Positions 2 through 52,595 are shown, counted from the first letter of the stretch. The stretch is 52,621 bases of DNA from an uncultured Planctomycetia bacterium (GCA_964445715.1 CAYULJ010000001.1:1-52621), one strand, 5' to 3'. Numbers and translations are program-made. The notes: generated by a model from the sequence alone, not told the origin.

Positions 2-545
2 ATAAAAGATGACCTGGATAGCTATAAAGATCTATATGGCTTTGTCTCTTACCTGAAGAAAGTAAACTCTCTTGATTCTGCAAAGCTCTTTAATGAGATA
101 GAAGAACTGACTTATGAGACAAAAGACCTTATCGCGGATAATGAAAATCAAAAACTCCTCACAAAATCCTTCAGACATATAAGATTCTTGGAAAATTTCT
201 TTAATCTTAAAGTTTCAAACGAAGATTTGGATTACTATCTTAAAAATCCAGAAGACTTCAAGGTAGGCTTTTTCGAGGGTTTCTTGAAGCGCAATTTGAA
301 AGAATACAAGATAGGCTCTTTCATAGACTTTAATCCTGACCTGATAGATAAATACCTGCCAGAGCTCGAATCCTTCTACAGAATAGCCCACAAAAGAGAC
401 GTGGCAATGTTCAACAACGCCATAAAAGAAATAGAAAAGCGCAAGGTCAAGACCTCTGCCCTGATAGCAGGAGGGTTCCACACCAGAGGCATAACAGAGC
501 TTTTGAAAGAAAAAGGTTATTCCTATGCAGTTGTCTCTCCATATT
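2..545 (+). other. Domain in giant ORF: C-terminal half of a Tiki/TraB/ChaN(GumN)-like fold, cut by the window edge
   Basis: AHKRDVAMF (R-D-x-x-M, nt 386-412) is followed by LIAGGFHTRG (G-x-x-H, nt 461-490). This matches the second-half signature of the Tiki/TraB/PrgY/ChaN superfamily. The first-half motifs would lie upstream of the window. Confidence 0.4.
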
Positions 546-3500
546 CAAAGACAGAGATAGATGAAGAGAATTATAGAGATCTATTGTCAGGCAAGAGAAA
601 GCCGCTGTCAGAATTGCTTACGAGCTTAAATTTTAAAAGCAAACTAAGGGGGATAATGGGCTATGCTGCAACAGATTTTATTGATAGATTTAATGTTAAT
701 GCCAACGTTGCTGAGAGATTAGGTATATTTATTGATGAAATACGTCCTATTTCGGGTAGATTCACTGCTGTTGTATCTGCATTTGGACTAGAGGTAGTCG
801 GACAAGATATAGATAGCGTAGGATTTATGTTTACTCTTGAATTCAGAGAATATCTTGAATCCGATATCGTGATCAAAAAAGATGCTGCTGGGAATATATA
901 TATTGGATATGGAAAGCAGTGTGCAAGGGTGAGAACCAGTGGCGCTCAATATGAAGTGATTAGTCATAACCTTTTTGCTAGAGTTCCAGCAGCTGAGACA
1001 ATAACGATTACAAAGAAAGATGTTACGGTAGAGACCGCTGATGTTGCCGCAGCTTCCGAAGAAGTTATCCAACCAACTGTTGCTGAGTCTGAGGATGATT
1101 TAGAAGCTGATACGAGCACAGGCGGATCGGTTATACCAGAATTAGAATACATAGAAAAAGTAGCATGGCTTGAGACACCAGTTGCATATTTAGCTGGCTT
1201 TATTTACTTATGGCTGTCTGATATAAGTTTATATGCCCTGCCATTGGTTGGTCTTGGTCTCTGGATTTCACACTTTATAGGGGCCTTTGGCTATAAGAAA
1301 TACATAGAGGGCGGTACTTATAAAGAAGCGTTTAAGGCAGGCTTGCGCGCGTTGTTTAGGATAGATGTAACAACGCTTTCGTTTTTGACTTCTGTTATTG
1401 GTGTTGGGTTTTTTATAGCTGGACCGCTTGGGTTTGTTGTTGCAAATGCTATTTTAATATTGTGGCATTTTATCGTAAATAAATTTAGAGCTAAAGACAT
1501 AAAAGAGGAAGAAGAAGGGCGGCCTAGATTTGCCAGTCTGATAAACGGCATTGCCCGCCGTGGTTGGGCCAGCCTTTCTTCTTTCTTTAAATCTTATTTT
1601 TCTAAACATGAGGCGAGAAAAAGAAGCGCTGCAAAGATAGTGCGGATCCTTATGGATACAGGCGCGTTTGATCTTGATGATCATGCAGAGGATTATTTAT
1701 TCGATGAGCTTCTTGGAAAGCCAAGCCATGAAGTCGACTTTGCAACGTTACGCAGAATACAGCTGGCCTTGGAGCAGGAAGGCATAGAGGCCCTGAAAAG
1801 AAAAGCCCAGAAGAAGGATAAGTTTGAATTCTCAGAAGACGAAGCTGCGTATGAACAGGTAAAAGATTTGGCTGCAAGGGCTTTTAAGGGCGCTCTATCA
1901 ATACCTTTATATATGCCTAAAAACTTTATCTGGCAGCCAATCGCCCCTCATGTGCAATACCGCTATTCCAGGAAGAGTCGCCAAGGTTTACTTAGCAAGG
2001 ATGATATAGCGAGGGTTATAAAAGGCACAGAAGGCCTGGAAGAGAAAACAGCGCCTTCTACAAATACCCTGGTCATAGCTTTCAGGTATTTCTGGGATCA
2101 TGCAGGAGTGATTATCTTCGAGCTCTTAAAATTTTCCTTAAAGTTCGCAATCATATCTCAGTTTACCGTATTTATAGCACCTTTTATACTTGCACTTTTG
2201 CCTGTGGGGATTGCCACATTTTCAGTTGCCGGCATGCCTATTTTTGGCATGACATTTTTCGCATGGTCAGCCGAATATATATTGGACAGGCTTTTGACAA
2301 ATACGCTGTTGAATTCCTTATCTATAGTAAAGCAGAGAAAGCAGCAGCTTGCAGAGGAAAAGCTTGCCTATAAACTTTCAGACCTTCCTAAGATAGAGGG
2401 CGTAGAGATTCCAAAGGCAGGAGATTTCAATGCATTGTCAGCGTATCTAGAGGCAGCACAGGAAACCACAACCCGTCTTTCGAAACCTGATATCGCAGCC
2501 GTAGAAGAACGATTGAGTTTTTATCCTGATTGGCAGAGATCATATCTTATATCATTACTGAATGATATAACTTCCAGCACAGAAAGAGGTGTTCCTAGGG
2601 CGAGAGAGCCTCCGACCAAGATATCTAAGAAAGAATCTTTTGTATTGTATTTACAGGCCATAGTCCTAAGTATCCCGGTCTTCGAAGGCTGGACTGTCAG
2701 GATCTTCCTAAAGAATTATAAAGGCTCACAATTAAAAGGCTGGAATAAAGCAGCACATATTGTACAGCTATCCTTATTCGCGCTTGGTTCTTCCCTGACA
2801 TTTAGCATAATAAAATCTACGCTTTCCCATATGTTTATTACAGGCGCGATAAATCAGTTTAGCCAGGGTGCATTATCTCAGATTCCGGTTGTCGCGCCCA
2901 TTGTAAACTATGTTACGAATTCAGGAGATATGTTAGTAGATAGCGCTCTTACTAACGATATTACTACTTCTGTGTACCATGCTTTTGGCGGAGACCTGCC
3001 AACGCTTAAGCACTTTATCTTAGAACCAAGGGCAGATTGGCTATATGACCAAGATGCTGGATTTATTGCAAGCTCGTTAGCCTCGGATAGCAACGCAAGA
3101 GAAGTCTTTGGATTGATAGATATGAGAGATGAAACTCTTGGCCTCCAGGTCCATGCTGAGATGATAATGAATGCTTATGAATCAGCTGAACCTGAATATC
3201 AAGGAGAGGCCGGCAAAGCTGTGCTAGAGAGCATGTTATATGAGAGTATGTTATTTGCAGAAGGCGAATTCATGTTAATAGTTGCAACAATGGACAGACT
3301 TGACCAGCTGCAGGAACAAGGCCTTATCTCAGAAGAAATCGCTTCAGAGATCATGCAGGCCATGTCGTACTATGAGACAGCCGCGAGTGTGTTTAGTGGG
3401 TTAATGGAAGATGTTTTTCAGGCTGAGCCACAACAGGAACAAGAGCCTGATCGCATACCTCTCCCTGTAGAATACTTTATTCCAAACCCGTCAGCATCAG

Positions 3501-6500
3501 ATGAATACTTTCTTGATTTGAACAATGCTTTTCTAGACAGTTATGACTTAACCGGCTACGAGCTTCATATAACATTCTCAGGAGGAGAAGGGAAAACTGT
3601 CCAGCTTTTTTATAAGGACGGTGACTGGAGAAATCTCTATTCATCTCGACAAACAATCCCAGCTAGCGGACTTATTACATTTAACCCGGAATCTGACCCT
3701 GCAGATATAAGAGGTGCGGATCTTAGCAATGCCCGCGCAGTTGGGGCAAAGATATTCGGAGGCTTGGGCGACGTTACAATAGTAGATGCAGCTTTGGTGC
3801 GTATAGGAAGTGCTGAGGTAGTAGAAGCGCCAGCACCCACGCCTACTTTGGTGCCGACAATAGAGCCCACAGAGACTCTCACTGCATTAGAAATACCGCT
3901 CTTCGAATACCAAACTCAAGACTGGATAGACAGCCAGGCAATAGATGAAGTCAGGCACAACGCCGACGGTACATTGGATTTACATGTGCATTTAGCAAGT
4001 GAGGCAAATATAAAAGAACAGGTAATAGAGTTTCTAGAGACACATCCTGAACTGAATGTAGATATTAGCGGAAAAGGCATAGATGAGTTAGCAGTGCTAG
4101 TAGCGGATGCGATAGACTCGAGCGGAAACTATCAAGATCCAGAATATCAACGTATAAGAGAATTAGTTGGCCAGAGTAAAGGCGAAGCTTTTATAGACCT
4201 CCGTTATGCAGACATCGGCTATCCAGATCATGAACCTGGGCAGACTCTCGATCTCACAAATTATAGACTCGTAGTGACAGTGGACATTCCTCAGCAATTA
4301 GTTGCTCCAGAAGGCGCTCCTAATGGCATTCAGCTCTTCTTTAAGAGCGGCCCAGAATGGTCAGCTGTATATGCCAACTGGACTAATGTCTCACAGGGAG
4401 GTCAAATCACATTAGCTGTGGATATTGGTGCAGTAACTGAGAACTATAATTGGATTTCAAGAGATCCAAATGGCGAGGTATTATTTGACCCGACTGATAT
4501 CAATGCCTTAGGCATAAAGATCGGTTCAGGAGGCATAGCCCTCTCAAACTATGAGACAGATGCATGGTTAAAGGCGACCTCAGTTGAATTGGTACCAGTA
4601 GAAGAAGCAATAGATACAATCCCATATCCACGCCCGATAACACATGGCGAATTTTCACCTGTAGACGTAGAGAGCTTTGTATCCCACAGTGGCCGTAACG
4701 GCATCTGGGGAGAAGAGACGCCCTATGGAACAGCCATGCAGCTTGAAGGTGGATATCTAGATATTGTAGGACACACAGAAGATGGGAGGCCTATAACAAG
4801 GATAGAGCAATTTCTGTTGAATGTAAAAGAAGATGGCGGCAATGAAGCTCGAGTATGGCTATTTAATGACATACGCAATCCAGATGAGATATTCATAATG
4901 AAAGATGGGGCACCTATAGCATTAAGAGGAGGAGTATATGAAGTAACCAAAGCCATTATAGACGCGCAAGAGAGAACAGAAGTCAGGGTAATACCGGTAT
5001 TATTCGACTTCCATATCTTAAATAGCATAAGAGAGGAAGGCGGGGAACTGACAGGAGAGCATCCTGAATTTTTCACAGAAGAAGGAAGAGAGGCTCTTGT
5101 AGAGATTTTTAAGCCGTGGATACAGGGATATGCTTCTCAATTTGAATTAATAGATTTATTTAATGAGCCAGAGAATGTCGCGCCAGAGCCAGATGCTGGA
5201 GTATTGTATAACCCGCATGTATTAACATTCTTGCAATCATTCAGCGATTTAGTTCATGAATACCAAGGCAATGTAACAGTAGGTATAAATAAACCGGAGA
5301 ATGTGTATCGCTATCAAGATATTATACGGTATGACTTGGGAGATGAGTTTTCAGTGCATTTCTATAATGTCTCACCCGGAGACTTGCCATATGCAGGTGA
5401 ACTTGGCGTAGGAACTTCCCCAGTAAGGATTACTGAGATAGGTGCAGATTCTAGGGAAGAGGTAATAGCTTTCATACAAGAGGCATGGGAGAAAGGCTAC
5501 ACTGGAATATCATTCTGGCCACAGGACGGGTTTACATCTGAAGGCCTCCAGGAGGCACTGGATAGTCTTAGGGAAGAATCAGCTAGCTTCAAGGTACAGC
5601 CAAGGCCTGTCGTCTTTGCAATTCCTGCACTAGCTGCACTGGGAACAAGTGTAGCCGGCTTTATGGATCTTATAGCTGATATAGTGCCATCTCTGGATGA
5701 TTTTGATGTTTGGGATGTCGTTAAGGTGCTGGCGGTTGTTACTGTTGGTGGTATTGTCTTGAGCACTGCCGGGCCTGTTGGCTTGTTAGCGGTTGGTTTA
5801 GTCGTTTTTAGTGTTAGTGCCTGTACCACCCCGCCAACGCCTACTCCTGCACCAGCTCCGGATACAAGAACAGAGGTTTTTCTGGAAGCCATGGATAGAG
5901 CAATTCTGGAACTAAGACAGGAAGGCGCGCCTTATATTGAAGAGCTCAGAGAGATGAGGCGCATGTTCGACACAGGCAGGGCTGGTTTTGTATCTATGCC
6001 TGGATTGTGGATGGGTTTGGGAATCCCTTCGCCTGGAGAAGAAGGGGAGATACTTTTCAGTGTTAATTATGAACTTATGGCTCCTTTGTTAGAAAGGGCT
6101 GCGTATGACAATAGATATAATATTTTCCTGAAAGCGATGTTGATTAAAGAGGCAGCTTCTTTGAGTTTTATCCAGGATCATCCTCAAGAGATACAAGACA
6201 TATTTCTGTATAGCGAAGAGTATTACAGATTAAGATCTGATCCAGACAATGATCTCAATACGCCTGAATTAGTACAGGCAGCGCAGAATTATTTCAACAG
6301 TATAGTTACCAGGGAGGCATTTGGCTGGAAGTCCCATATGGAATATTTGGCTGATAATGACATGACAATAGAATCGCTTGTAGCGATGAGAGATGAAGCA
6401 GAGGCGCAGGGATTGTCGCAACTGTCCAGTCTTTTTCACAGTCACGCGATTTACACTTTAGTTGGCGCTCCTGATGGCAGGGTGGACTGGATAAATTTAA

Positions 6501-9500
6501 AACTCGTCCTCTCCAGCGCAATGCAGGTATTAGATGAGAATATCTATAGAGATATAATGACCATAGAGGAGAACAAAGGGACAGTGCGTTATGATGATTC
6601 TATAAATGACTGGGAACTGATTGGCGGCTTTGTCGATGAAAACGATAGATTTCATTATCCGGATAACTTTTTAGAATTCCTCAGGGAGGATAATATAGAC
6701 TCAGGCGCACAAGACCCTGCTACTGTGCCTGAACAGCCGGCAGTTACAGAAGAGGCGGCTGCGCAATTGTTGAGTGCGCTTCTTGAGGAAATCCATAGCG
6801 ATATGCTCGGAGGGAGAGATGCTGCATTATCTGGGTTACCTTATTCTGAAGAAGCTTATAATAACCTAAAAGATATATTGACTAGCGGAAGAGTTACGGT
6901 AGAAGACAGCACAGGGTTCTTTACGATTTTAGTCCCACAGGCTGATGGCCGCACAATAGATCGCGTAATCATAAGCAGCTCAATATTAAGTCCCGAATAC
7001 TATGCGATATTGAAAGATGCCTTGAGGCATGAACTCGTGCATTTTGCTGACAACACATTAGAGAGAAAGATGTTGTTGGCAGAGGAGTTTGGCGAGACTG
7101 TCCAGCTAGAGATCCTGAATTTGTTTTCCAGCGATGATTTTAAGCAAAACGGCTTAAATCTTTCTCAATACCTGGAACATAAACTCAGAGAAGATCCAGG
7201 GTTTGTAGAATTGATCAAACGGTTAACAGCTTTATATATACAGGATGAATACGTGGCATTTGATAGAGTACCTGGCAGTATACCTTTCGAGGTATACGCC
7301 AACTTGCTTGATCTTGACGGAGAAGGCAGGGCTACAGGGATCAGAGATGAGACGGGATTTAGATTATGGTTGTTTGAGGGCTATTTAAGAAGGCAGAATC
7401 CGCTTCTCTATATCCTGGCAGCAGAAGTAGAACGGATCGAAGGCCGCGGGATTTATCATCCAGTATATAATTGGGATAACGGGACAGCTATGCAGTATTA
7501 CCGCGTGCCTATATCCATAACAGAGACTGATGTGCAGTTTTTCGATCTTTCCTATCCGATGCTTATTCCCAGGGCATTTGCCTATGATGTAAATGGAAAT
7601 CCCAGAGCAGTGCCATCTCCTGCAGATGATATTTCTTTATACGTTACGCTGGAAGATTACAGAAGAGATTACCTCCCCTACATTATGGATCCTGGCTATT
7701 ATAGGGCAGAGACAACAGGAGGAGGCAAGATGTTTAAGATAATGCCACCTACTATTGCGCAGTATGATGCTGTCCAGGACCAGATAATAGAAGGCTTTCC
7801 AGAGGCCACCGAAGCCGACATCCGCGCCTCTATCCGCACCCAACTTCAGCCTATAGTCACAAACATCGATGACGTAGACACATATACCAGGGAATACTGG
7901 ATGGTATGGAACTCCTTTGCTCACCCATGGGTAAAGGAAGAGTTATCCAGCTTACTACTTGACTCTGGTAATAGAGGTAACCATGTCCTTGAGATAGTAG
8001 AAGCAATAGGCTTTGACCCAGAAGTAGACCAGACTGCAAAAGTCATCTGGGCTGATGATCTAAAAGATATATTCACTAATACCATCTCTGCGGATTATGT
8101 AAGGGGCACGTGGGCATTGTGGGGACTTGTACAGATAACAGGAGATGAGGCTTCAGACGCTGTAAGCGTAGAAGGCATATCCTCAGCTGTAAGAATAAAA
8201 TTAAACGAGTTGCTCGATGATCCTGCAACTGACTGGACCAGTTACCAGGCAATAATCCCTGCCTTAGACGGAGGAGAGTGGCCGGCTGATGTAAGGCTTG
8301 ACTCATTTGAGGTATTCGAAGGAGTTGTAAATAATCCAGGCGTATCTGATACTGAAAAGATAGAAATAGGAAATACAGTCCTTCGCGCGTTAGAAGCTAT
8401 CCACGCAGCAGGCAGCTACGGTATGTATGAACAATACATAATAGTAGCAGGAGCAAAGGTCCTTGCAGGAATAGGAAGGGATGAGACAATACCGGATTCA
8501 GATAAAGAAGCATTCTTTGATAGATTAAGCGCCTTACCTCTTCGTGGATTTACTGATCCTGAAAACAATGACGAGATATTCATACAAGAAGTGGATGAGG
8601 ACTTCTTGGTCATAAATCAATATTATCATATACCTGATGAGACCCTTGAAGCTTTAATGAGCCTGGACGCAGAAGCGCTGATTAATGGAGATGCCTTCAG
8701 GTCAGAAGATGACCCATTCGTAAGAGAATCTATCTATGGTAGTGAATGGGATAGGACAGTCGGCGACAGCGAGAAGCTTGCCCTATCACAGGCTGCGAGG
8801 ATTTTATTAGAAGGTTATAATCTTGAAAACTACGACACCTTGCCTCCAGAAGACCAGATCGCAATTAGAGCAGCCTTAGAGATAGCAGAAGCTGCATGCC
8901 ATGACGCAACACTCTCTATAGATGAAAAGAAGACCTGGGCAACATACCTTATAGATATATACACGAACACCTCTATACCTTATACAGTAAGGGCAAGAGC
9001 AAGCTGGGCTCCTTATGAGGTATCAAGAGACCCGCGTATAGACATTGCATCCAAGATAGATGAAATAGCCACACCTCTGATAGCATTTTTAAATCTAAAT
9101 ATAGATAACCTCACAAACTACGAGGCTGTCGCAGCATTAGACTGGGATACATACCCAGCCGGCGAGCAATTTGATTCCTTACGCATATTAAAGGAGATAG
9201 CAAGGTCCCCTGACTTTGAAACTCTTCCTGAATCAAACGTAACGCCTATAGTTGATGCTACAGTATCGGTTTTAAACAACATTAATCTGGATTCTCCTGA
9301 CGCGCACGATCTAGAGGCAATAGCGCACGGGACAGAGACATTAAACATAATCTTCTCGACTACAAACGCAATATCAGGAACCAGCATGCAAGCCGCATAT
9401 GATCTCTTGCTCAGCCTCTCGGTCAATGAGAATATCTACCACGAGATATATGTCAAGGATGTTGATGAAGACTCAAATACCGTAGAGATCTACTATAACA

Positions 9501-12500
9501 TAGCTGATGAGGTGAACAAGGCACTGGGGGTGGTGATGCAAACCCAACTCTCTCAAGGCCTCTCTGAAGCCGACATCCGCGCCTCTATCCGCACCCAACT
9601 TCAGCCTATAGTCACAAACATCGATGACGTAGACACATATACCAGGGAATACTGGATGGTATGGAACTCCTTTGCTCACCCATGGGTAAAGGAAGAGTTA
9701 TCCAGCTTACTACTTGACTCTGGTAATAGAGGTAACCATGTCCTTGAGATAGTAGAAGCAATAGGCTTTGACCCAGAAGTAGACCAGACTGCAAAAGTCA
9801 TCTGGGCTGATGATCTAAAAGATATATTCACTAATACCATCTCTGCGGATTATGTAAGGGGCACGTGGGCATTGTGGGGACTTGTACAGATAACAGGAGA
9901 TGAGGCTTCAGACGCTGTAAGCGTAGAAGGCATATCCTCAGCTGTAAGAATAAAATTAAACGAGTTGCTCGATGATCCTGCAACTGACTGGACCAGTTAC
10001 CAGGCAATAATCCCTGCCTTAGACGGAGGAGAGTGGCCGGCTGATGTAAGGCTTGACTCATTTGAGGTATTCGAAGGAGTTGTAAATAATCCAGGCGTAT
10101 CTGATACTGAAAAGATAGAAATAGGAAATACAGTCCTTCGCGCGTTAGAAGCTATCCACGCAGCAGGCAGCTACGGTATGTATGAACAATACATAATAGT
10201 AGCAGGAGCAAAGGTCCTTGCAGGAATAGGAAGGGATGAGACAATACCGGATTCAGATAAAGAAGCATTCTTTGATAGATTAAGCGCCTTACCTCTTCGT
10301 GGATTTACTGATCCTGAAAACAATGACGAGATATTCATACAAGAAGTGGATGAGGACTTCTTGGTCATAAATCAATATTATCATATACCTGATGAGACCC
10401 TTGAAGCTTTAATGAGCCTGGACGCAGAAGCGCTGATTAATGGAGATGCCTTCAGGTCAGAAGATGACCCATTCGTAAGAGAATCTATCTATGGTAGTGA
10501 ATGGGATAGGACAGTCGGCGACAGCGAGAAGCTTGCCCTATCACAGGCTGCGAGGATTTTATTAGAAGGTTATAATCTTGAAAACTACGACACCTTGCCT
10601 CCAGAAGACCAGATCGCAATTAGAGCAGCCTTAGAGATAGCAGAAGCTGCATGCCATGACGCAACACTCTCTATAGATGAAAAGAAGACCTGGGCAACAT
10701 ACCTTATAGATATATACACGAACACCTCTATACCTTATACAGTAAGGGCAAGAGCAAGCTGGGCTCCTTATGAGGTATCAAGAGACCCGCGTATAGACAT
10801 TGCATCCAAGATAGATGAAATAGCCACACCTCTGATAGCATTTTTAAATCTAAATATAGATAACCTCACAAACTACGAGGCTGTCGCAGCATTAGACTGG
10901 GATACATACCCAGCCGGCGAGCAATTTGATTCCTTACGCATATTAAAGGAGATAGCAAGGTCCCCTGACTTTGAAACTCTTCCTGAATCAAACGTAACGC
11001 CTATAGTTGATGCTACAGTATCGGTTTTAAACAACATTAATCTGGATTCTCCTGACGCGCACGATCTAGAGGCAATAGCGCACGGGACAGAGACATTAAA
11101 CATAATCTTCTCGACTACAAACGCAATATCAGGAACCAGCATGCAAGCCGCATATGATCTCTTGCTCAGCCTCTCGGTCAATGAGAATATCTACCACGAG
11201 ATATATGTCAAGGATGTTGATGAAGACTCAAATACCGTAGAGATCTACTATAACATAGCTGATGAGGTGAACAAGGCACTGGGGGTGGTGATGCAGGCTA
11301 TGGGAGCCAGTGGCATAGCTTTTGATTTAGAACCAGTTCGGGTGAGCGATTCAGAAGCAGCACAAGAGCAACCCGCAGCGCCGCAGCCAGCAGCAGCACT
11401 CCAGCAGCAACAAGATACTATAACACTGCTTCCTTATGAACCCGTTACTGATATTGGCCGAGACGGACAAGAATATATACTTAATTCAAGGTTACTATGG
11501 CAGGGAATATATGAATATGGCTATCTTGCTCACCAGGAGATAGTTGATGCAGACTGGAATTATCGTTTCGCAGAGTTAAATGGACAGCCTGTTCTCGCGC
11601 GCTGGGGTAGGCAGGATTATAATGCTGGAGCATTAGAGGTATTTAGCTGGACATATGCAGATGCTACTTTTGCCACAATCAGTATTGAAGAATTCAATAA
11701 TGATATAATCGTCCTTGATAATCAGGTGTCATTGTCCATGGATCAGCAGACTCTGTTCCTGGATACCTTGGGAGTGGGCGTAGCAGGCATCGGAGGCGGA
11801 GATATAGTCGATCTGCCATTGGAACCAGGCCCTGAGGGATTTGTTGTAGAGGGCATGCTCTATCGTCAGACCCTTGGTGGCCAGGTAGAATATGTGGATG
11901 CTGAGTTTAGATATTGGTTTGCCCAGCGCACAAGCGACAACGCTTATTTTCTCATAAGACAAGGCAGGTATTATTCGGAGCATAAAGATAAAATCGAGAT
12001 GTTTGAGATCTCGCCTGATCTTATTTCAGGAGAGACTCCGAGTTTCAACGATATGACCAGAGATGTGTTCAGGGACATTGTATCACAAGAACCAAGCGTA
12101 CCTACTACTTATGATGTTGAAGAGACAGTCTTGGTCGGCCTGGCTGAAATGCCTGCAGAAGCCCAGGTATATCCTGACGCACAAACATTCGAGTACGAAG
12201 GCCTTATAGAAGGCGTAATAAGCGGCAACAAGAAAGAGATCATGAGAGGGGATGCATTGCTGCAATATCTGGAAGGTCTGGCAATAAGTTATGAGTTGCC
12301 GTTAGAGATAAAACCATATGAGAACTATCCGGTTTTCACGAACTTCTACGAAGATGAGTCTGGGAACGCGCTTGGATATGATGTTTCAGTCTTTTTCTCT
12401 GAACTGGCGAGAGAAGGACATGAATATGACCCAGAAGCGTGGCGCCCTGCTGGCAGCACCCGGCCTCCTGATTTCACAGTTGTGCGCACTGACTTTATTG

Positions 12501-39500: not shown

Positions 39501-42500
39501 GAGACGGCCTATTAAAGGCCTCAAGAGACAACAATCCGTCAATACGTTTTCATGTAGCAAGGGCATTGGGAGAGACAGGAGACCATGAAGCAGAGGAAGG
39601 ATTATTGAGGCTATTAGATGATGAAAAGGCATTTGTACGTGATGCTGCAGCAGAGGTATTGGGAAAGATTGGGAATTCTGGAGACTCTAGAATAGAAGAG
39701 AAGTTAATGAGATTATTAACTGATGAAGATGAACATGTACGTTTTTCTACAGTTAAAGGTATTGGAAATTTAGAATTTGTAGATGGATTGATAACAGCAT
39801 TGGCAGTTGATGATCGATTCGTCCGTAGAATAGCTACGCAACTGTTAAGAGAGCTGGGAGAAAAACAAGTCATAAGGACCGGTGATAGACGTGTTGTAGG
39901 GTCATTGATAGAACACGTAGATGACGTAGATGGAGTTGTTAGGAAAAATGCTCTAGATGCATTGGTAGTGCTAGGAGATGAGGATACCATATTTCTTTTA
40001 TGTCAAGTTTTATCAGGTGTTCCTGAAACAGAGGTCGTTTCTATTGCTGACGATCACGACTCAATAGTCGAATACTATCAGCCGTTAGTTTATGACAGGT
40101 TTAGTATGGCAAGTGTTACGTTGCTTGGCGAAGAAACAAGAGTTAGTCCACTAAAACAAAGAATTCCTGATGCGATAGATACAATTTTTGAGAGACTCAG
40201 GAAGCAAAGAGCAGAGAGAAAATTTAATATGGGACAGCTCAATAATCAGAGATTAGGTGAGTTTTTGCATTGGTTAGAAGAGATACCTTTAGATGATGGC
40301 ACATGTCTAGGCGATCATATAGTAGCTTTTGGTGGTGCACCGAGGGATGCATATATAGAGAAGAAACTTGTTGATATAGATGTAACGGTCAAAATTCCTT
40401 TGACAGACCAAGAGAGGGTCGCTTTCTTAGGGACTCGTAGTATGGTTAATGAAAGAGTATATTCATATGCTAAGGAGAAGCTACAACTATTAGCAGAGGC
40501 ATTAGGAGTAGATTGCGAGCTATTTCTTCAGCCTCCAAGTGCAGAAAATAGAATAATGTGGCGGGGAGAATCTGGAGAAATAGAGATACAATATTCTGGT
40601 CCAACAGTTCCTACGGCTGCGCTTAGAGAAAACCAAGAAGAGAAAGTATATTTAAAGAGGGCGTTTGTTGATACAAACACAGGGATTTTATATTCGTCAA
40701 GAACAGGCCCAGCCTTATCACAGATGGCGTTAGACTATAAAGGAAATGTATATGGGCGCGTTCATGCGTTAGATGATTTTGATAATGGAATAGTGAGTAT
40801 AGCAGGAGATGGGCATAATTTTACCATAGGGCTTATACTGCGACTATTACGGTTAAAACATGAATTCGAATTTAGAGTCTTAAAGAATGATTACCAATTA
40901 GTTATTGATACGCTTAAGAGAATGAGCTTGTCAAAGGGAGATGGGGCAATGCCTTCCTATGTTAAAAAGGCTACAAGTGATCAGGTAGATAAACTAATTA
41001 GAGTGGCACAGGATCCGCAGGCTACCCATGAGGAATTAATCGCATTAGGGATATATGAGTTATTGAAGGATATATGGGATATTGATATGCAAGGGGATAT
41101 AGAAGCAATGATTGACAGCGAAGGCCCGGCCAATTCTATTTGGCTGCAGGCCCTTTCTTCTATTGTTTATGTCACCTTACCTTACCTTGCATATTTGTCC
41201 CAGTGGGCTGTGCTACTTCTCCCATTTCTTTTTTATTTTCTTGGCCATGAAGACCTCCCCCTCCCTGTTTTAGGTCATGGCGCGCTGGCGATGTCTATCA
41301 TGGGCATAGGCCTTGATGTAAATCCCCAAGCAGTGGTAGAGTTCCCTAAAAAACTCGCCGGACAAAAGAAGTATAAAATTGTTGTTTTATGTGAGTCAAA
41401 TGCATTCCGCAGTCCTATCTTAGAAGATAGGTTGCTTGAGAGCATAGAAAAAAGAGGATGGGAAGAGTTCTATGATGTTATATCTCGCGGAATGCACCAT
41501 CTAGCTGAAGGCCAGAGCGAACGCTTAAAAAGAGATATTCGCGCTACCTTAAGAGCAAATTGGGAATATTCTGAACGCGTTAGAATGCTCATGGATATAA
41601 CTATTCCTCAACAAATATCTGAGGAAGATGTCAAAGACGCAAGTCTTATCCTGGTAGCGACTCACGGAGAAAAAGAAAGCATTTTAAATATGTATCCTCA
41701 TATGGAAGGAAGAGTTATTTTAATAACTCAGTTTATATCAGAAAAGGACCCTGTCTATGGAAAATTATTACATGGCGAGGATGTGCCAGATTTAAGAGAG
41801 AACATTCCTGGCTTAGGAAAGATCGGAGCGGAAGAACTTTGGAGAATATATAATAAGGTCCTGACAGGACTTAGCGGGTATCTGAAAACGGCGCGCCATC
41901 ATGAATTTATGGCAAACACTAGCGTACATATCATTCGGAAAAATAATCAAGCTTTCATTTATCACTGGGATACTGGAGAGATCGTTTACTTTGACTGGGG
42001 AGAAGGAAGGGGGCTTACCGAAGAGGAGTTTTCAAGCTTGGACAGGGTTACGATAGGGCATATTAGAGCAGCAAGCAAGCTCAACATAGGCGGGAGACCC
42101 AGATTTAATTTAATAAAACACAGAGGCAAGGAGATAGAATTTGATGTTATTCAGGGACAGGTAACAGAGATTAGAATTACAGAGTCCATAGGTGGACCCG
42201 AAGTCATAAGACCACTTCTTATATATATTATCGAAGATGACGGCGGATTAAAACTCGTAGATTCTCGCGGCAAGTTAAGCAAGAGCGTGATGATGGAATT
42301 CAAAGGCCATAGAATATTAGTAAGAGGGGAGAGAGTCTGTGTTGGTAAGGATGGAACTGTGGCTTTAGGCTTGGACCGAACGTACAAAAACAGAAAAGGT
42401 AAAGATGCAGTGTCGAATAAGTGGGTTGAACTTGGGGATAAAAGATTGCATGGGGCAAGATTTGAAGCAGAGTTCGATTGGACAAGTACACGGAACAATA

Positions 42501-45500
42501 CGCACGCAGACTATTATATGTCGAGGATGCGATTTGCAGACGAGGACGGAAAGCCGACTCTGGATTATAGAGGCAATCCTATTGTGAATTATCAGGGAAA
42601 TCCTCTTACGCTTGAGATAATGCCTGCTTTAGAGAGGCATCAGTGGGATGTAAGAAGGCAGATAGCCAGATTATATCCTATACGAGAAAGGGATTTGGAT
42701 GAAAAGACAAAAGGCGGAAGATTTAGATATGCTATTTTCGATAATATTACAGGCAGGTGGAAAGGCCAGGCCAAAGGCGATAAAGAGGATACCCGTTACC
42801 TATGGTCTGAGATCAATCTTGATGTATTGGATGGGACTGCGGATAGTCATCTTTTCGGGCCAAGACTTAATCAAGATGCAAATCTGTTAATACTTCGGGA
42901 GCATTTAACATACTTTGAGCCGCGCAATGAAGCTGCAGGCTTGCCTGTTAAGGTCCGTTATCTATACAGAGAGCCTGTTAGCGCTACAATTGTAGACGAA
43001 GACGACAAGGTTGTTTATAAGGAAGGCACGCCATGGTCAAGGAAAATCAGATTTGGTAAATTAAGCAAAAAACCTGAATCCTACCGTCCAGCCGATGCCA
43101 ATGACCGGAAACTCCTTGTTGATGCTTGTGAGGCAATATTAGATTTTAATATGTTAGTTGCGCTCGAAAAATTGGACACATTCTGGCAGAGAAAAATTCC
43201 AGATGAAAATCACGGACTGGCAGAGAAGTTGGCAGAAGCAGTTAAATTTAAGATAAATAGTAATGATGCAGGAACGGATGTGGCTGATTTAATTGAAGCG
43301 TGGGAAAATAACAGAATAGGCCATAGTTATGAAGACGTTGTGGATAAAATTCTTTTTTATAAATCAGGACAGGGAGAAGTTAGAAAATTAGAAGGCAGCA
43401 TGTTCTTATACCTTTTTGTCGTATGGGCAAGGGCTTTACAGGGACAGGCAGATTTTGGATACAGGCAAGAAGATATTCATAGAGCATTTAAAAGAGCCTT
43501 GATTTATACTTATACGAGCTCACATGAATTGAATCAGGCTAGAGAAAGCGGATTGGTCGATCTTGATTTTGCGCTGTTAAGGTTATTTCTAGGCCCTCCT
43601 CAGCTTAATCCGAGAGAAAAAGAAACGCTGACTCGTATACCTCAACTGTTATTAGAAAAAGGTGTTAATGAGGCTCTTAATGCGAGATATTATATTAGTG
43701 CCATAAAAAAGCTGGGAGGGCGTCCCGTGAGAGACGAAGGTTACGCTGCTAAGCTCGAACAGTGCCTCTATGTTGTTGGGATAGCTGGCAAAGTAGGCCT
43801 TATCAAAAAAGCCGATGTCAGGTTGCTGAAAACTATTGTAAATGGATCCAGGATTCTTAGTTATAAGATTCAAGGTTTATCAAATAGAGAGATCGGTCGT
43901 AAGCTTTCTATGGGTCGCTCTGTAGTCAGTAGAACTTATAATAGATTCAGAGAACTCATTGGCCTGGGTCATATGTTAGAAGGTCTAATTCGCAGTCAAA
44001 GTCTAGATCTTGAAATGCACCTTGAAGCTGCGGAGATAGCTAAAAAGAGAGACCTTATGGAAGACGATCTTAGTTCAGTTAGAGAAAGGCTCTCGGCCCT
44101 TAAAGAAGCAACTAGCAATATCTCCTCCTCTGATACCAAAATAGCCAGTATAGCCGCTACCCTGATATCTATCTCGACAATAACAGCAGGATACCTGACC
44201 CGCTCTGTGCCTCTATTGGCTATAGGCCTTGTGCTTCTTCTGCCTGCAGCCATGTTCATCTGGTTTTTCTTTAAACTCAGAGCAACTGAGACTAGGCTCG
44301 CCTCTGGTGAAATCAGGGCAGGCCCGTACGAACCCATAGGACTTTTCCAAAACAACGCAAGCCCTGACGAAGACCTACGTTACCTTGCAACTACTATAGA
44401 CGGGATCATCTACTACCATCCAATTGAGCTTACAAATTACCACCCGATAGAACAATACCTTATATATATACATGAATGGGCGCATAAGAAATTTGCCTGC
44501 ACAGGATTTAAGATGTTGGATGAATTCCTTGCGTATGGCTTTCAGTGGTTGTGCATAGTGGCCGTACCGGTTGCACTAGTTCTTTTATTACAACAGTCCG
44601 GGCAAGGCTTGTCTAGAAACACCCTCACTGTGCCCCGTACGCAAATCGTAGATTTCGTACGGGGCGTGGCTGGTGGGGCTTCTGGCTTTGCCTGGGCTGA
44701 GCTATTGGGATTTATAGGTATGTGTGCGATGGGAAAAGGACCTAGGCAATTGAACATGTTCGGTGACCAGGGCGATGATTCAGGGCCTGACAGCGATGAA
44801 TCAGATGATTCACAATCTGAATACAATGAGATAAAAGAAAGAATTTTGGAAGCTCTAGCTAGTCTAATAGAATCTGCCAATGCTGAAGCTGTGAAATGGA
44901 CAAAAGAGTTAGAAAGTTTACCAAAAGGCCATACGTCAACATATACTTACTTAGGCGAGATAAGCCGTCAGGAAGCGATTGCCAGAAAAGCTCAAGAGGC
45001 AAAGGATGCCTTGGAGAATAAAGGCGCAAAAGGCCTCATCAGGTATCTGAATAAAAAAGACCGCAGCCGGACGATAAGAGATAGAGGTCGAGGGGTGTCG
45101 CCTTATACTAAGGCGAAGAGTGATATTAGGCAAGCCATACTGGAAGATGCTCAAGAGCTACGCAGTAAAGAGATAAAGCTAGAAGGAAGTTCACGAGGAC
45201 AAGGCCTTGTATTATTTAATATTATCTTTGCTGTAGTCCTAGGGTTAGCCGCGTTGTTATTTGGAGATTTTCTTATAGACCTGATTTTTACAGGAGCGTG
45301 GGATACGCCAGCAGTTCCTAAGGTGTTACTGGCCAGTTCTCTTGGCGGTTTTGGCCTGTTGCAGAAAGCCCTTGGGATTATTGATGGCACCCAAATATAC
45401 GAAGATATTCGAGAAGAATATGGCACTGAATTAAGTGAAGCGCAGGAAAGGATTGCGTTCTGGAGAGACAAGATATCCGAAGTCGCTCCAGATGATAGCG

Positions 45501-48500: not shown

Positions 48501-51500
48501 AGGATAACCGAAAATTAGGTTACAGGCTTCTACCTGACTTGGATGAAGCAGTGATTAGCGACATAGAGAGTTTTGTTATAGATAGAATAAGGGCAGGTGT
48601 TAGGGATTTGGTCTTGCTGGGCATAGGTGGTCAGGCCTTAGGAAACATTACACTTCAGGAGACATTGGTTTCCACTCTCTATAACAGATTTCCGCAGTTA
48701 AGAGGCAGTTATCCAAGGATACATATCCTTGATAATGCTGACGCGCAAGACCTGAGCAGATATTTAAAAGAGAACAGACTCGATCCCAATACGACAGATA
48801 TATATATCAGCTCTAAGTCAGGCGGGACTGTAGAGACGCTGTCTAATGCGTACTTCTTCCTTAATTGGCTAGAAGGGTCTGTAGGCGAAAAAGAGGCGAT
48901 CAAACATATTGTAGTTACTACCAATGATGCAGAGAAGGGGTTACTTTATGGCTTTGCGAAGGAGAAAGGTATAAAGATGTGGTTTATACCCACTGAACAG
49001 GATGAAGATGTCCCTGGCAGGTACTCAGTGCTTTCAGTGAGTGGATTGCTCTCTGCTGCGTATGCAGGCGTTGATGTGCGTAAACTTCTTGAAGGCGCAA
49101 AGTCAATGCATAGTAAGCTGGAATCAGATGACCCCAGGGAAAATCCTGCGTTCCGCGCAGCGATCTTAGCCTATCTTGCTTATTTGGATGGGAAAGATAT
49201 TTTTATTCTAGGCACATATTCGGAAAAACTGCGCTCATTCGCTGATTGGTTAAGACAGTTATTCGGAGAGAGTTTAGCAAAAGACGGAAAAGGTATATTT
49301 GCCGGAGTAGCATCTGGTGTTGATTCTATAGAGGCATTAATAAATAGCCCTGATGACAAGCTTTTTATTCTTTTAGACTATTTACCCGAAGGGATCGTGC
49401 CTCCGGAATTTCGCGATAGATATAGTATCAATTTAGAAATAGAGCATTTGGATGAATATACCGCAGGTCAACTTCTTTACTTCTTCGAGGAATTTACAGT
49501 TAGGTTTGCCAGCCTTTTAGGGATCAATCCTGTTATTCAACCTAAGGTTGGCCTATTGAAGACAGTATTCCAGGACCTTGCTAGAGAGCCCCTGAGTAGA
49601 AAAATAAAGACCCGTCTATTTCTCGATGATAGTTTTGCCTTTGGAGAAGGAGGCATAGATGGGGATGAGTTACGATCGAAAGAACTAGAGGCCAGGGAGA
49701 TTTTAGATGCAACTACAGTTACAGAACCCAAAGAATTATTAACCTGTTTACGAGGATACTTTAAAGAGGTTAGCGCCCAGATAAACAGAGAAAAAATAGA
49801 GCACCTTATTATTATTGGCAAGCGGGCGCACACGTTAAAGGCGCGTGCCCTAAGCATGGCTTTTAGTGACATAAAAGTCCATGTATTTGATGAGACTAAG
49901 TCTGAGACAGTCGAAGATCTATTGCGACTGATCGGGCCTAAAAGTACATTGGTTCAGGTGATGACTGAGCCAGGAGATAAGAGGGAAGATTTTATTCACT
50001 ACAGAGCAGTATATACGTGGGTAAGGAGGCATTATCCAAATCACATAATCGCCACAACAAATGATCCAGAAGGTAGATTTCCTGAGTTTGTAGATGAGGA
50101 TAATGTTGTTAAATTAGGCTTGCCGCAAGAAATTCAAGAAGCATGTTCAGTCAAAGGGATTTCAACAAATGAGATCTTGCCAGCGTATATATTAGGAGTG
50201 GATTTAGAAGAATTGCATAAGGGTATCTTGGGCGTCTCTACGGAATTAGCTGCTCGAATTTTAGCTATACAGTATTTAGCATCTAAAGAAGGGAGAAAGA
50301 TAAATGTAGTATTTACCTATTCTAATGCCCTAAAAGGATTTAACTCCTGGCTAAAGGCAAGGTTTAGACAAGCTTTGGCAGGACTATATAGTCATCCTTA
50401 TGTAGAGACTGCGATTGGTACGACAGATAATCATTCTATCATCGAAGGCATACTCAATGGCCCTAATAATGTCTTCACTATTTTTATAGGGCTATTAGAA
50501 GACCCGGCTTATACAGATGTGCTTAGAGAGGGTGAATTTGCCAGTCCTTTGGTGCCAGATTATCTTTTAGGGAATAGTATGACGGATATATCCACTAAAT
50601 TCCGATTAGGCGCGAGTGAGACTTTTACCAGAGAAGCCAGGTCGAATGTTACTGTAGAGGTACCCCGCCTAGATGCCCGCTCATTGGGAGAGCTGTTTGG
50701 GTTGTTTGAGATGGCAGCGGTCGGGCTTAGAGGGTTGATTATTAATGATGAAGCTGATGAAAGTCCTCATGAAAGATTCAAGATAGCTAGCGAATCGCTT
50801 AGTCAAACAAGTGCCTTGGAATGGGTGGGACCTGACTTACTTGATAAGTTAAAGGAGATAAATGAAGGCAAAGAGCCAATAGCGATAGACCTTAATATTA
50901 ATACACTGCCAGAAGTCTGGGAGATGGATATCCAGGATTTATCGGAAAAGTATAATGTAGATCCTGGCCAGTTTGTCGTATTAAAGCTTGTCTCGACTGA
51001 TTTTGAGGGGAATATAGTTATCCATATAGTGGCTGATAGGCTCGAGCGGATCAATATCAGTAATCTTGGTACCGTATTTTCCCCTATACAGGATACGTAT
51101 CTTTATAATTTGCGAATAATATTGGATTATAAACAAAATTCTGTTATTAGCGAGGAGCGTTATATAAGTAAGGAGATCAGAGGAAAAGGCCTGGGGCATG
51201 AAATACACGTTAATCTAAAAAGGTTATTAGTCAAGTACGGATTTGCAGGATTTTCAATACAAACGTCAGCAGTTAATTTTTACACAGCAAGGACATTCTT
51301 TTCTCTTTACAATGCAGAGATTGACTGGTCAGATCCTTTGAATTTTATAGGTAGGAGGCAAGGGAGATGGAGAGGAATTTTTTCTCGCCTTGGCATTACG
51401 ACATCTACAGATACTGAAAACTTACCTATAAAAGAACTAATGCCAGACCTTTCATTTTTCTATTTAAGAGATTTTCTTAATAGGGCTAAGACAGAGGATG

Positions 51501-52105: not shown

Positions 52106-52139
52106 CTTTACACTTCAACAATGTTAAAGTGTATACTTA
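52103..52139 (+). repeat. Palindromic element E1 (degraded copy), starts at the stop codon of the giant ORF
   Basis: The sequence is TAACTTTACAC-TTCAACAATGTTAAA-GTGTATACTTA. The 11-nt arms pair at 9 of 11 positions around a 15-nt loop. It shares about 29 of 34 positions with E2. An alternative inner fold is TACACTT/AAGTGTA (52109-52133). Confidence 0.7.
52107..52137 (+). promoter_or_regulatory. Weak sigma-70-like promoter candidate embedded in E1
   Basis: TTTACA (52107-52112) and TATACT (52132-52137) are separated by 19 nt. The same geometry exists in E2 (TTTACA 52561-52566, TAAAGT 52586-52591). The promoter consensus of the host is unknown. Confidence 0.2.
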
Positions 52140-52559: not shown

Positions 52560-52595
52560 CTTTACACGTTAACATTGTTAAAGTGTAAAGTTAAG
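52555..52595 (+). repeat. Palindromic element E2 (perfect 13-bp arms), starts at the stop codon of the 129-aa ORF
   Basis: CTTAACTTTACAC (52555-52567) and GTGTAAAGTTAAG (52583-52595) are exact reverse complements around the 15-nt loop GTTAACATTGTTAAA. E2 lies 454 nt downstream of E1 in the same orientation. Confidence 0.8.

Follow-up and report, generated by a model that had tools for sequence, protein, structure and literature searches.

What kind of gene passes through almost an entire stretch of bacterial DNA without a single stop codon, and what could its product do for the cell? This question is raised by a sequence of 52,621 nucleotides (nt) from an uncultured Planctomycetia bacterium (GCA_964445715.1, CAYULJ010000001.1:1-52621), which was analyzed over its whole length and is referred to as the window. 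One giant open reading frame (ORF) on the plus strand, at positions 2-52105, comprises 17,367 sense codons and a TAA stop and is open at the 5' edge of the window. Frame +2 was found to contain no stop from nt 2 to 52102; its first stop is the TAA at 52103-52105, and its total of 17 stops all lie 3' of the ORF end, in the last 500 nt. The remaining five frames contain 523-1,532 stops each, which corresponds to approximately 0.062 per codon versus a compositional expectation of 0.063, and the probability that 17,367 stop-free codons occur by chance was calculated from composition as approximately 10^-490. The longest ORF outside frame +2 spans 166 amino acids (aa; 39034-39534, minus strand). 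Guanine occupies 37% of the first codon positions and, with self-trained codon usage, frame 2 outscored both shifted frames in all 346 blocks of 100 codons, by at least 18 nats and by a median of 67 nats. As the coding signal is continuous in every block, there are no intergenic-like stretches and no hidden frame changes, and the giant ORF was confirmed as a genuine single coding sequence and not a frame that is open by accident. The visible part of the product has a computed mass of 1.946 MDa and an isoelectric point (pI) of 4.75, and cysteine makes up 0.2% of its residues. A first-pass annotation had already described the uninterrupted frame, the open 5' edge, the ceiling of 166 aa for all other frames and a product of about 1.9 MDa. 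These statements agree with the numbers obtained here, and the homology to relatives indeed begins at residues 3-8, i.e. directly at the edge. The enzyme motifs that it had placed in this one frame were all recovered in frame +2 (as QMSRW, CESNAFRS, SKSGGTVET, GRYS and NEP), and profile matches positioned them inside the glycosyltransferase, phosphatase, isomerase and glycoside hydrolase domains to which it had assigned them.

The product of this ORF is proposed here, with a probability of about 0.6, to be an envelope-spanning, membrane-anchored glycan-processing assembly: a multi-pass protein of approximately 17.7-18 thousand amino acids (kaa) from an Omnitrophota-type bacterium that would belong to the 'multi-enzyme metabolic cluster' type of large proteins. 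Domains were searched with Pfam, NCBIfam and PDB-sequence scans on overlapping slices, for Pfam with 18 slices over the whole protein at E<=0.01. Profile and structure-model comparisons showed three glycoside hydrolase family 5 (GH5) domains with intact catalytic signatures that are closest to endo-beta-1,4-mannanases. They are encoded, like all features of the ORF described below, on the plus strand at 4637-5596 (aa 1546-1865; motifs FNEPEN, VHFYN, RITEIG and SFWPQ), 17399-18331 (aa 5800-6110; INEPEG, VHHYEN, YVGELD and AVWGL) and 20153-21031 (aa 6718-7010; LNEPEW, VQYYAY, ILEEYP and FVWQL). NEP tripeptides are found at aa 1721, 5946 and 6866, and a fourth, at aa 8508, lies outside any GH5 domain. 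A profile was built from nine sequences, namely the three paralogous domains of approximately 300 aa in the window and six segments from relatives. In this alignment (15-24% identity) R51, E151 of NEP, Y215 of HxY, E258 and W283 are invariant, and the catalytic signature of R, N-E, H-x-Y, nucleophile E and W is intact in all three copies in the window. This signature is characteristic of GH5 and clan GH-A, where the glutamate of NEP (strand 4) is the acid/base and the nucleophile glutamate lies on strand 7. Against PDB, the profile matched the mannanases 3vup, 4oou, 5y6t and 2c0h with E=8.8e-32 to 2e-29, the best match spanning profile positions 3-286 of 294, and more than 50 further GH5 entries. 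The Pfam Cellulase model recognized copy 2 at E=1.4e-4 with 21.9 bits, just below the gathering score of 23.5. An AlphaFold2 model of copy 2 (predicted template modeling score, pTM, 0.81; mean predicted local distance difference test, pLDDT, 74.5) consists of alternating strands and helices of a (beta/alpha)8 barrel, and Foldseek returned the same GH5 mannanases as top PDB entries (E~1e-9, TM-score 0.55-0.58). As the identity to these mannanases is only 15-19%, the substrate specificity is not transferable. The 'cell-wall-degrading' content suggested by the first-pass annotation needs correction in this respect, as the nearest enzymes are beta-mannanases and not peptidoglycan or pseudomurein hydrolases. 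A module of approximately 135 aa precedes two of the hydrolases. Its copy 1 (3392-3799, aa 1131-1266) is 53% identical to copy 2 (15950-16363, aa 5317-5454), which is followed by a transmembrane (TM) hairpin at aa 5486-5538. A GH5 domain follows each copy after about 400 aa, the relatives P0031 and L029 carry the module as well, and a weak Pfam match to Mann_GBD_bact (E=0.006) was found near copy 1 at aa ~1442-1480.

The second enzyme that shapes the proposal is a predicted glycosyltransferase family 2 (GT2) synthase-like domain at 24809-26491 (aa 8270-8830). It contains, in this order, YTKPGANT, IIYDNEN (with a DxE), PLGGTTGYF, QVAEDYMLG and QMSRW (26036-26050, aa 8679), followed by TM segments at aa 8714-8816; approximately 40 residues separate the ED from the QxxRW. 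The Pfam family Glyco_trans_2_3 (PF13632) matched over profile positions 78-194 of 198 with E=1.7e-6 and 28.4 bits (gathering score 27) and recognized six of the eight members of the GT2 family set. Invariant in the family alignment are KPGANT, D61-x-E63, PLGGTTG, E369-D370 (AED) and Q410-x-S-R-W414. The order of the motifs in the window is that of processive membrane GT2 synthases such as BcsA, chitin synthase and hyaluronan synthase. Between the DxE and PLGGTTG, the family members share an all-helical insertion of approximately 250 aa (aa 8350-8590), the only confidently predicted part of the AlphaFold2 model of this region (pLDDT 80-93).

These two enzymes are joined in a conserved core. 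Relatives were found by an exhaustive HMMER search with aa 7101-8300 as query against 1.84 billion cluster representatives; a word-indexed search with a 1,200-aa core query was insensitive and found only P0016. The HMMER search yielded 33 relatives of the core, many of them 3,000-7,300 aa long. A motif scan of 185,579 species-representative genomes detected 23 core loci with a best identity of 55%, and the core was also present on eight JGI metagenome contigs. Fifteen of the 23 loci are labeled 'Candidatus Omnitrophota bacterium', one Ca. Makaraimicrobium, four 'uncultured Planctomycetia', two Auribacterota and one UBP3; as NCBI places Ca. Makaraimicrobium in the Omnitrophota, 16 of the 23 bear labels of this phylum. 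A viral origin was considered and discarded, as no core relative was found among the IMG/VR viral contigs. In nearly all loci of the relatives the core frame ran without a stop to the end of the 10-22 kb retrieved, and some of the contigs are 159 and 309 kb long. The mapped relatives are collinear with the giant protein over aa ~6,300-9,400, with the order unassigned module, GH5, TM module, TM plus GT2, TM and a module with an HExxH motif. The unassigned module (18917-19981, aa 6306-6660) could not be linked to a known fold. The multi-TM core proper (21149-27871, aa 7050-9290) shows 30-55% identity in the same order in about 30 other large ORFs, with 36-57% identity to the relatives for the TM plus GT2 section. 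The ORFs of the relatives stop 700-3,000 aa past the GT2 core, and aa 9,400-17,367 of the giant have no counterpart in the loci of 31 relatives except for a weak HD match in L027. The C-terminal part of approximately 8 kaa is unique to the giant gene and appears to be a lineage-specific accretion. The content of the N-terminal ectodomain is shuffled among relatives, and GH5 lies before the core in some of them and after it in others. The genes are therefore mosaics in which mobile modules surround a core that stays fixed. A side observation concerns a motif of approximately 40-50 aa ('...G.MT.EQ...L..LS.D..YQ.A...') at ~22808-22966 (aa ~7603-7655), with a similar stretch near aa 7470; it matches small proteins and internal repeats of P0041-P0046 with 43-58% identity.

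The tail beyond the core contains several domains that resemble enzymes of the cytoplasm. An HD phosphohydrolase motif region (28148-28276, aa 9383-9425) scored 24.5 bits versus a gathering score of 22. A CofD/YvcK-like domain (PF01933; 34709-35296, aa 11570-11765) scored 48.6 bits versus 30, with a partial match to profile positions 100-252 of 290. A HEAT repeat array (39164-39871, aa ~13055-13290) was detected at E=8e-35 and matched alphaRep structures in PDB. It is followed by a domain resembling low-molecular-weight protein tyrosine phosphatases (LMW-PTP; PF01451; 41378-41749, aa 13793-13916), for which the LMWPc model gave 25.9 bits versus 23.2. Its P-loop C-X5-R-S (CESNAFRS, aa 13797) is positioned at the start of the profile match, and phosphatase activity is predicted. 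Near the end of the protein, two phosphoglucose isomerase (PGI)-like copies follow each other at 48509-49621 (aa 16170-16540) and 49667-50791 (aa 16556-16930). This region matched PF00342 with 63.8 bits versus 22 (E=1.6e-17), NCBIfam at E=1.7e-69 and the PDB entry 2q8n at E=3e-38. Copy 1 contains SKSGGTVET (aa 16271), GRYS (aa 16339), QLFGES and INPVIQPKVGLLK and lacks a segment of approximately 45 aa that holds the DQHS histidine; copy 2 contains GTTDNHS and lacks SKSG, GRYS and ES.GK. In PGI dimers, the ring-opening histidine is supplied by the partner subunit. A composite active site across the two copies is therefore conceivable, in which case the tandem would form an intramolecular pseudo-heterodimer with one active site. 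A word-indexed search with a 1,200-aa C-terminal query found only PGIs. A C-terminal tail shared with relatives ('...NYERYV.E.L..A' versus '...DFRRALKLLRQAI' in the giant) was considered and dropped, as BLAST and a local profile search returned nothing.

Between the LMW-PTP-like and PGI-like domains lies a module of 735 aa (41867-44074, aa 13956-14691) that shares 70-72% identity with the C-terminal portions of two ordinary stand-alone Omnitrophota genes, P0013 and P0012, with counterparts at 11630-13831 of locus L001 and 503-2653 of L003. P0013 (1,292 aa, annotated as Candidatus Omnitrophota, 70% identical over 739 aa) is encoded on a 94-kb Omnitrophota contig, where its gene is flanked by Band_7 and cold-shock genes. 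No Pfam family was detected in the module and P0013 itself is essentially dark in Pfam; a weak sigma-70 region-4-like helix-turn-helix was indicated by NCBIfam (E=0.0026). The identity of 70-72% to stand-alone genes compares with 30-55% between the conserved core and its nearest relatives, which suggests a recent exchange of modules between giant and normal genes. As the stand-alone P0013 matches through its C-terminal part alone, the similarity does not reflect the fusion of a whole gene.

A further recurrent element is the HExxH motif, which occurs four times in the product versus 0.36 expected, with a maximum of three in 500 shuffles. Three sites belong to a module of approximately 150 aa, in which TM helices precede the motif or lie within the module. 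Copy 1 (27731-28198, aa 9244-9399; HELDH at aa 9339) directly follows TM helices; copies 2 (38603-39052, aa 12868-13017; HELTH at aa 12963) and 3 (44186-44647, aa 14729-14882; HEWAH at aa 14824) are encoded together with TM segments, and internal-repeat analysis recovered them as a duplicated TM-containing module (aa 12845-13005 and 14706-14870). In an alignment of seven copies (approximately 22% identity) the H, E, H, one Pro and one Gly are invariant. In P0020, P0024, P0028 and P0031 the module follows the QxxRW of the GT2 domain at a distance of 660-1,560 aa, and it is also present in L005 and L009, which were outside the profile build and both keep the HExxH. The sole meaningful PDB match of the profile was M. 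jannaschii MJ1213 (4qhf, 4qhi and 4qhj; E=0.0025), which we take to be selecase, a minigluzincin of 110 residues; the alignment spans '...iYiN...HELlHLK.G'. Selecase is a metallopeptidase of M. jannaschii (PMC10808063) and SprT has been linked to minigluzincins (PMC4559962); one copy of the module matched SprT-like at E=0.002. The suggestive but marginal similarity points to a membrane-adjacent zinc peptidase. The fourth site, LRHELVHFADN at 7028-7042 (aa 2343), is located in the dark N-terminal region and outside this TM-adjacent module family.

The combination of these domains allows a layout to be proposed. GH5 enzymes act on extracytoplasmic polysaccharide, and GT2 synthases use cytoplasmic nucleoside diphosphate sugars (NDP-sugars) and extrude the product through their own TM helices. 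PGI and HD enzymes have cytoplasmic substrates, and the same applies to CofD/YvcK, which binds uridine diphosphate sugars (UDP-sugars), and to LMW-PTP, which regulates polysaccharide export in the way of Wzb. In the proposed assembly, the GH5 domains and the carbohydrate-binding-like modules would work on the outer side of the cytoplasmic membrane, where their target would be a polymer of the mannan or glucan type that belongs either to the surface of a host or prey cell or to the envelope of the bacterium itself. GH5 may trim a polymer of its own cell, in the way that BcsZ trims cellulose, or degrade a glycan of host or prey in line with the published predation hypothesis. The GT2 module would polymerize a polysaccharide and thread it through its own TM helices, and TM hairpins would hold the cytoplasm-type enzymes at the inner face of the membrane. 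There, PGI might interconvert glucose-6-phosphate and fructose-6-phosphate, CofD/YvcK might bind UDP-sugars and the LMW-PTP-like domain might regulate polysaccharide export in a Wzb-like manner, so that the tail enzymes together would provide sugar precursors or regulate them. The gene may have grown by in-frame accretion and duplication of modules, which is based on an exact in-frame duplication with a period of 1,755 nt, the module common to stand-alone genes and the tail without counterpart in relatives.

Several observations weigh against this assembly. The existence of the ORF product as one polypeptide is a prediction from the DNA sequence, and approximately 79% of its residues carry no assignable domain in the scans. 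For the synthase, the nucleotide-sugar-binding motif is D-N-E in the giant versus D-A-E in relatives, the GT2 profile matched no GT2 structure in PDB, and AlphaFold2 modeled the region from an eight-sequence alignment with a pLDDT of 54 and with catalytic parts below 50. The PGI region reaches 234 bits versus an NCBIfam equivalog cut-off of 443 and neither copy alone holds the full catalytic set; likewise, the NCBIfam YvcK model (E=1.2e-8) stays far under its equivalog cut-off. As GH5 follows the GT2 core in some relatives, there is no conserved outside-to-inside order. By a crude count, P0024 has 11 TM segments between GH5 and GT2, P0027 has 14 and the giant has 10 or 15, and the attempt to derive the topology from the parity of hydrophobic segments was abandoned because the counts are inconsistent across relatives. 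SecA_DEAD was not matched in any slice, the 0.5 kb of 3' flank within the window contain no secretion-system gene, and the exact tandem duplication of approximately 1.7 kb could be an assembly expansion.

The main rival for the mechanism is a self-processing polyprotein, in which the HExxH modules at aa 9339, 12963 and 14824 would act as minimal gluzincin-type peptidases that cut the precursor at the membrane, so that the functional units would be separate enzymes and anchors much smaller than 1.9 MDa. This reading is considered unlikely, and it has several points in its favor: the excess of HExxH sites, three of which sit in a conserved TM-adjacent module with invariant residues, the profile matches to MJ1213 and SprT-like proteins, and the recurrence of the module past the GT2 core in six relatives or more, two of which were outside the profile build. 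In addition, two module copies bracket the HEAT array, the LMW-PTP-like domain and the 735-aa module, the last of which exists as a stand-alone protein elsewhere. However, the peptidase assignment is marginal, with one independent PDB match at E~1e-3, and no cleavage sites are known; the modules could equally well have other substrates, as HtpX and BlaR1 do, and the literature reports sparse peptide evidence for the giant protein of Velamenicoccus archaeovorus and leaves its processing unsettled. For the function, the main rival is a purely extracellular predation effector of the 'Archaeovorin' category, a coat that binds and digests surface glycans or the cell wall of prey or host. It would imply that the metabolic-type domains are also outside or misassigned. 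The three GH5 domains with intact catalytic residues, the signal-peptide-like N-termini of complete relatives, the acidic pI and the very low cysteine content are compatible with such a coat, which is also the published interpretation of the class, and the V. archaeovorus protein is reported from proteomics to be up-regulated on attachment. It is nevertheless rated as somewhat less likely still, as GT2, PGI, CofD/YvcK, LMW-PTP and HD use NDP-sugars, sugar phosphates and phosphoproteins in the cytoplasm, the approximately 40-49 TM segments favor repeated membrane crossing over a secreted coat, and the GH5 domains resemble mannanases and not murein or pseudomurein hydrolases. Dockerin, TSP3 and SecA-DEAD were also not found by Pfam in the whole protein, and the core family was not found in the V. 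archaeovorus genome by a motif scan that is limited by its patterns.

An artefact of assembly or annotation, by chimeric joining, over-polishing or the loss of stops between adjacent genes in the consensus, is regarded as very improbable. An exact tandem repeat of 1,729 nt is a structure that assemblers can create, the exact sequence was found neither in the JGI metagenome collection (48-mer) nor in the GTDB genomes (aa 1-600), and one module exists elsewhere as a separate gene. On the other side, the chance of so long a stop-free frame is vanishingly small and the codon-usage signal never drops in any 100-codon block. Moreover, 31 independently assembled relatives carry the collinear core in frames open over 10-22 kb, some of them on contigs of 159-309 kb, and the stand-alone homologue matches via its C-terminal part only. 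A conventional giant gene, i.e. a repeat-based adhesin (RTX, Bap or Ig-like) or a megasynthase for non-ribosomal peptides or polyketides, would account for the size and for some repeat regions (aa 2591-3773 and 4342-4850) and is refuted by the domain scans. Self-similar segments make up 13.7% of the residues and none of the Ig, cadherin, RTX, condensation, adenylation, ketosynthase, acyltransferase or carrier domains was detected in the whole protein, which bears out the first-pass annotation in its exclusion of both a repeat-dominated adhesin and a megasynthase. The glycan-processing assembly can also be extended to a bolder and, in its entirety, doubtful version. The core (aa ~6,300-9,400) would then define an undescribed Omnitrophota-specific family of envelope machines that hard-wires glycan hydrolysis, polymerization and export, and proteolysis in one chain. 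The present member would be a self-processing polyprotein by way of its minigluzincin-like modules, and its 8-kaa tail would form a membrane-tethered cytoplasmic metabolon that feeds the synthase, with a PGI pseudo-heterodimer in which copy 1 contributes substrate binding and Glu/Lys and copy 2 the ring-opening His.

The relatives also indicate how much of the gene is missing at the 5' end. The first residues of the window belong to a conserved N-terminal domain (8-691, aa 3-230), for which no family could be assigned and no Pfam match was found; a TraB/ChaN-like reading by eye had no Pfam support. The complete relatives P0024 (7,201 aa) and P0027 (6,926 aa) begin with a methionine and a signal-peptide-like or TM segment and align to the first residues of the window from their own position ~350 onwards; the N-terminal 600 aa of P0024 gave no Pfam match. 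As the homology starts at residues 3-8, the true start is upstream of the window. Approximately 350-650 codons are probably missing, which would give the full length of ~17.7-18 kaa. In seven loci, a homologue of the aa 3-230 domain starts a second large gene no more than about 650 codons past the preceding stop (L005 20145-20831, L009 12227-12682, L020 16501-17136, L024 18555-19199, L025 7671-8309, L028 18574-19215 and L033 8462-9100). Its position downstream of a core gene shows that giant genes can pair in tandem and that the domain marks their starts.

Outside the domains described above, the protein is largely featureless in database terms. Significant domain matches cover about 21% of it and the N-terminal 5,500 aa are essentially dark in Pfam. 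A Kyte-Doolittle scan revealed the 40-49 TM-like hydrophobic segments in approximately 10 clusters, which corresponds to one segment per 350-430 aa; the first cluster is encoded at 1199-2260 (aa 400-753). Dockerin (PF00404), TSP3, GT1, GT5, NUDIX and a methyltransferase set were not detected by Pfam in the whole protein. Between aa ~9,800 and 10,800, two readings by eye remained unsupported: a ROK or sugar-kinase-like motif (IDVGGSDIK; Pfam ROK E=0.28, nothing in PDB) and a sugar-nucleotidyltransferase-like motif with hexapeptide repeats (ILAGGFGERY; Hexapep_GlmU E=0.012, nothing in PDB). The repeat region at aa 2591-3773 is a tandem duplication. Its exact in-frame part (7811-11294) consists of two 1,729-nt copies with 100% identity (nt 7811-9539 and 9566-11294), the period of 1,755 nt equals 585 codons, and the duplication sits within an older repeat of approximately 290 aa with 25% identity. 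The two copies stem from a very recent duplication or, alternatively, from an expansion in the assembly. At 13025-14551 (aa 4342-4850) there is a run of repeats, each about 90-100 aa long and approximately 44% identical, and Tandem Repeats Finder reported no nucleotide arrays with a period of up to 500 in the window. GC skew is positive in each 2-kb segment of the ORF and the cumulative skew climbs monotonically. No tRNA genes or Rfam families were found in the window.

The short 3' flank is organized around a palindrome. A 37-nt copy (52103-52139) overlaps the TAA stop of the giant ORF, and a second copy with 86% identity is found at 52557-52593 after the next ORF. The palindrome measures approximately 37-41 nt, with arms of 18-20 nt (TAACTTTACAC...GTGTAAAGTTA). 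Each copy starts at the TAA of the preceding ORF, so that the pair brackets the small downstream ORF. No T-run follows the palindrome, and it was absent from all 34 related loci. The bracketed ORF of 129 aa (52170-52559, plus strand) matched positions 141-213 of the 238 in the AbiEii profile (PF08843, E=2.6e-6). Judged from this profile match, it is the C-terminal fragment of an AbiEii nucleotidyltransferase toxin, i.e. a putative degraded remnant of a toxin-antitoxin or defence system that belongs to the flank only.

The findings have consequences for how such genes are viewed. Giant Omnitrophota genes fill several percent of very small genomes, and none of them has a demonstrated function. 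A conserved core of approximately 3 kaa that is common to about 30 otherwise unrelated long ORFs provides a concrete and testable handle, and each domain is small enough for separate expression and assay. The 70%-identical module in stand-alone genes and the exact in-frame duplication show how such genes grow. If the layout of an outside hydrolase, a membrane synthase and an inside metabolism applies, these proteins would be envelope-spanning glycan factories and not only predatory 'coats'. Cleavage of the chain by the HExxH modules, should it occur, would make the '1.9 MDa protein' a polyprotein.

Comparison with known systems places the individual parts of the protein in context. The GH5 domains share a full-length profile match, the catalytic signature and the top Foldseek hits with the animal mannanases 3VUP, 4OOU, 5Y6T and 2C0H. 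They differ from them by the low identity noted above and by their position inside a giant membrane protein. The predicted synthase resembles processive GT2 synthases (BcsA, chitin synthase/NodC, hyaluronan synthase and PgaC) in its match to Glyco_trans_2_3, in the order of its KxGxN, DxD-like, (T)ED and QxxRW motifs and in the TM segments that come after them. BcsA-type systems encode a partner glycanase (BcsZ), whereas here a glycanase of the same general kind is fused in the chain. In contrast to BcsA-type synthases of 500-1,500 aa, the GT2 domain is embedded in a chain of more than 17 kaa, carries the helical insertion of approximately 250 aa and D-N-E in place of DxD, and no PilZ or known regulatory domain was found with it. 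Like the minigluzincins (selecase MJ1213, PDB 4QHF-4QHJ), the HExxH module is short, with a hydrophobic 'iYiN' strand before the HExxH and G/E after it, and as in HtpX and BlaR1-type (M48/M56) enzymes the catalytic module is directly beside TM helices. The similarity to minigluzincins is marginal (E=0.0025), so that peptidase activity is putative here. The PGI-like region shares 27-32% identity with bacterial glucose-6-phosphate isomerases (PF00342, including transaldolase-PGI fusions), and signature motifs 1 and 2 are recognizable. It differs from an ordinary PGI by its tandem duplication and by the partitioning of the catalytic motifs between the copies.

The protein as a whole fits a published class, so that its existence and size would not surprise a specialist. 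The first-pass annotation had pointed to Omnitrophota-type giant ORFs. This affiliation was borne out by the predominance of Omnitrophota among the core loci, by the great ORF length of all detectable relatives and by the 735-aa module shared with a Candidatus Omnitrophota protein. The window itself contains no marker genes, and an origin in an Omnitrophota genome is indicated indirectly, by the labels of the core loci and by this module. Its description of the class as essentially uncharacterised was too cautious, as the literature documents it much better. Most Omnitrophota genomes contain ORFs of more than 20 kb, in which few domains are annotated and conservation is poor (Seymour et al. 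2023, PMC10066038). Proteins that reach 85,804 aa and combine numerous TM segments with glycosyltransferase (GT), glycoside hydrolase (GH), HEAT and glucose-phosphate isomerase domains are described by West-Roberts et al. 2023 (bioRxiv 10.1101/2023.11.21.568195), who define 'large' as at least 10,000 aa and 'giant' as at least 30,000 aa, introduce the 'Archaeovorin' category and report a divergent SecA DEAD-like domain in most giants. Nielsen & Lui 2026 (bioRxiv 10.64898/2026.06.07.730766) catalogued 916 proteins of at least 10 kaa, the longest with 147,155 aa; 94% of the 916 have TM helices or a signal peptide, 80% of the sequence clusters are singletons, and their class 1, 'multi-enzyme metabolic clusters', is rich in sugar metabolism, HD and HEAT domains. 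In the same literature on large and giant Omnitrophota proteins, TM residues amount to approximately 2%, or about one helix per 370-450 aa, and neighbouring genes encode type II secretion systems, type IV pili or glycoside hydrolases. The combination of GH5, TM, GT2 and HExxH in one core, the partitioned tandem PGI and the 70%-identical module shared with stand-alone genes were not found described in the parts of this literature that were searched. With ~17.4-18 kaa, the product would be 'large' and not 'giant' in the definition of West-Roberts et al., and it differs from the class in that SecA-DEAD, dockerin, TSP3, GT1, GT5 and NUDIX were not detected in it; of these, SecA-DEAD is no strict requirement, as it is reported for most giants and not for all. 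The giant protein of V. archaeovorus LiM is 39,678 aa long, with 42 predicted TM segments and with domains of glycosyl hydrolases and glycosyl transferases (Kizina et al. 2022, as reported by citing papers). A motif scan of GTDB species genomes with the two most conserved peptides of the core returned no Velamenicoccus locus, and of the two proteins only that of LiM has expression evidence. The two have dozens of TM segments and GH/GT domains in common and probably also their phylum-level origin. With the Omnitrophota class as it is described in these sources, the ORF shares a single frame of multiple tens of kilobases, the TM density, a mostly unannotated sequence, the set of GT, GH, HEAT, HD and sugar-phosphate-enzyme domains, poor conservation outside a limited core and repeats derived from duplication.

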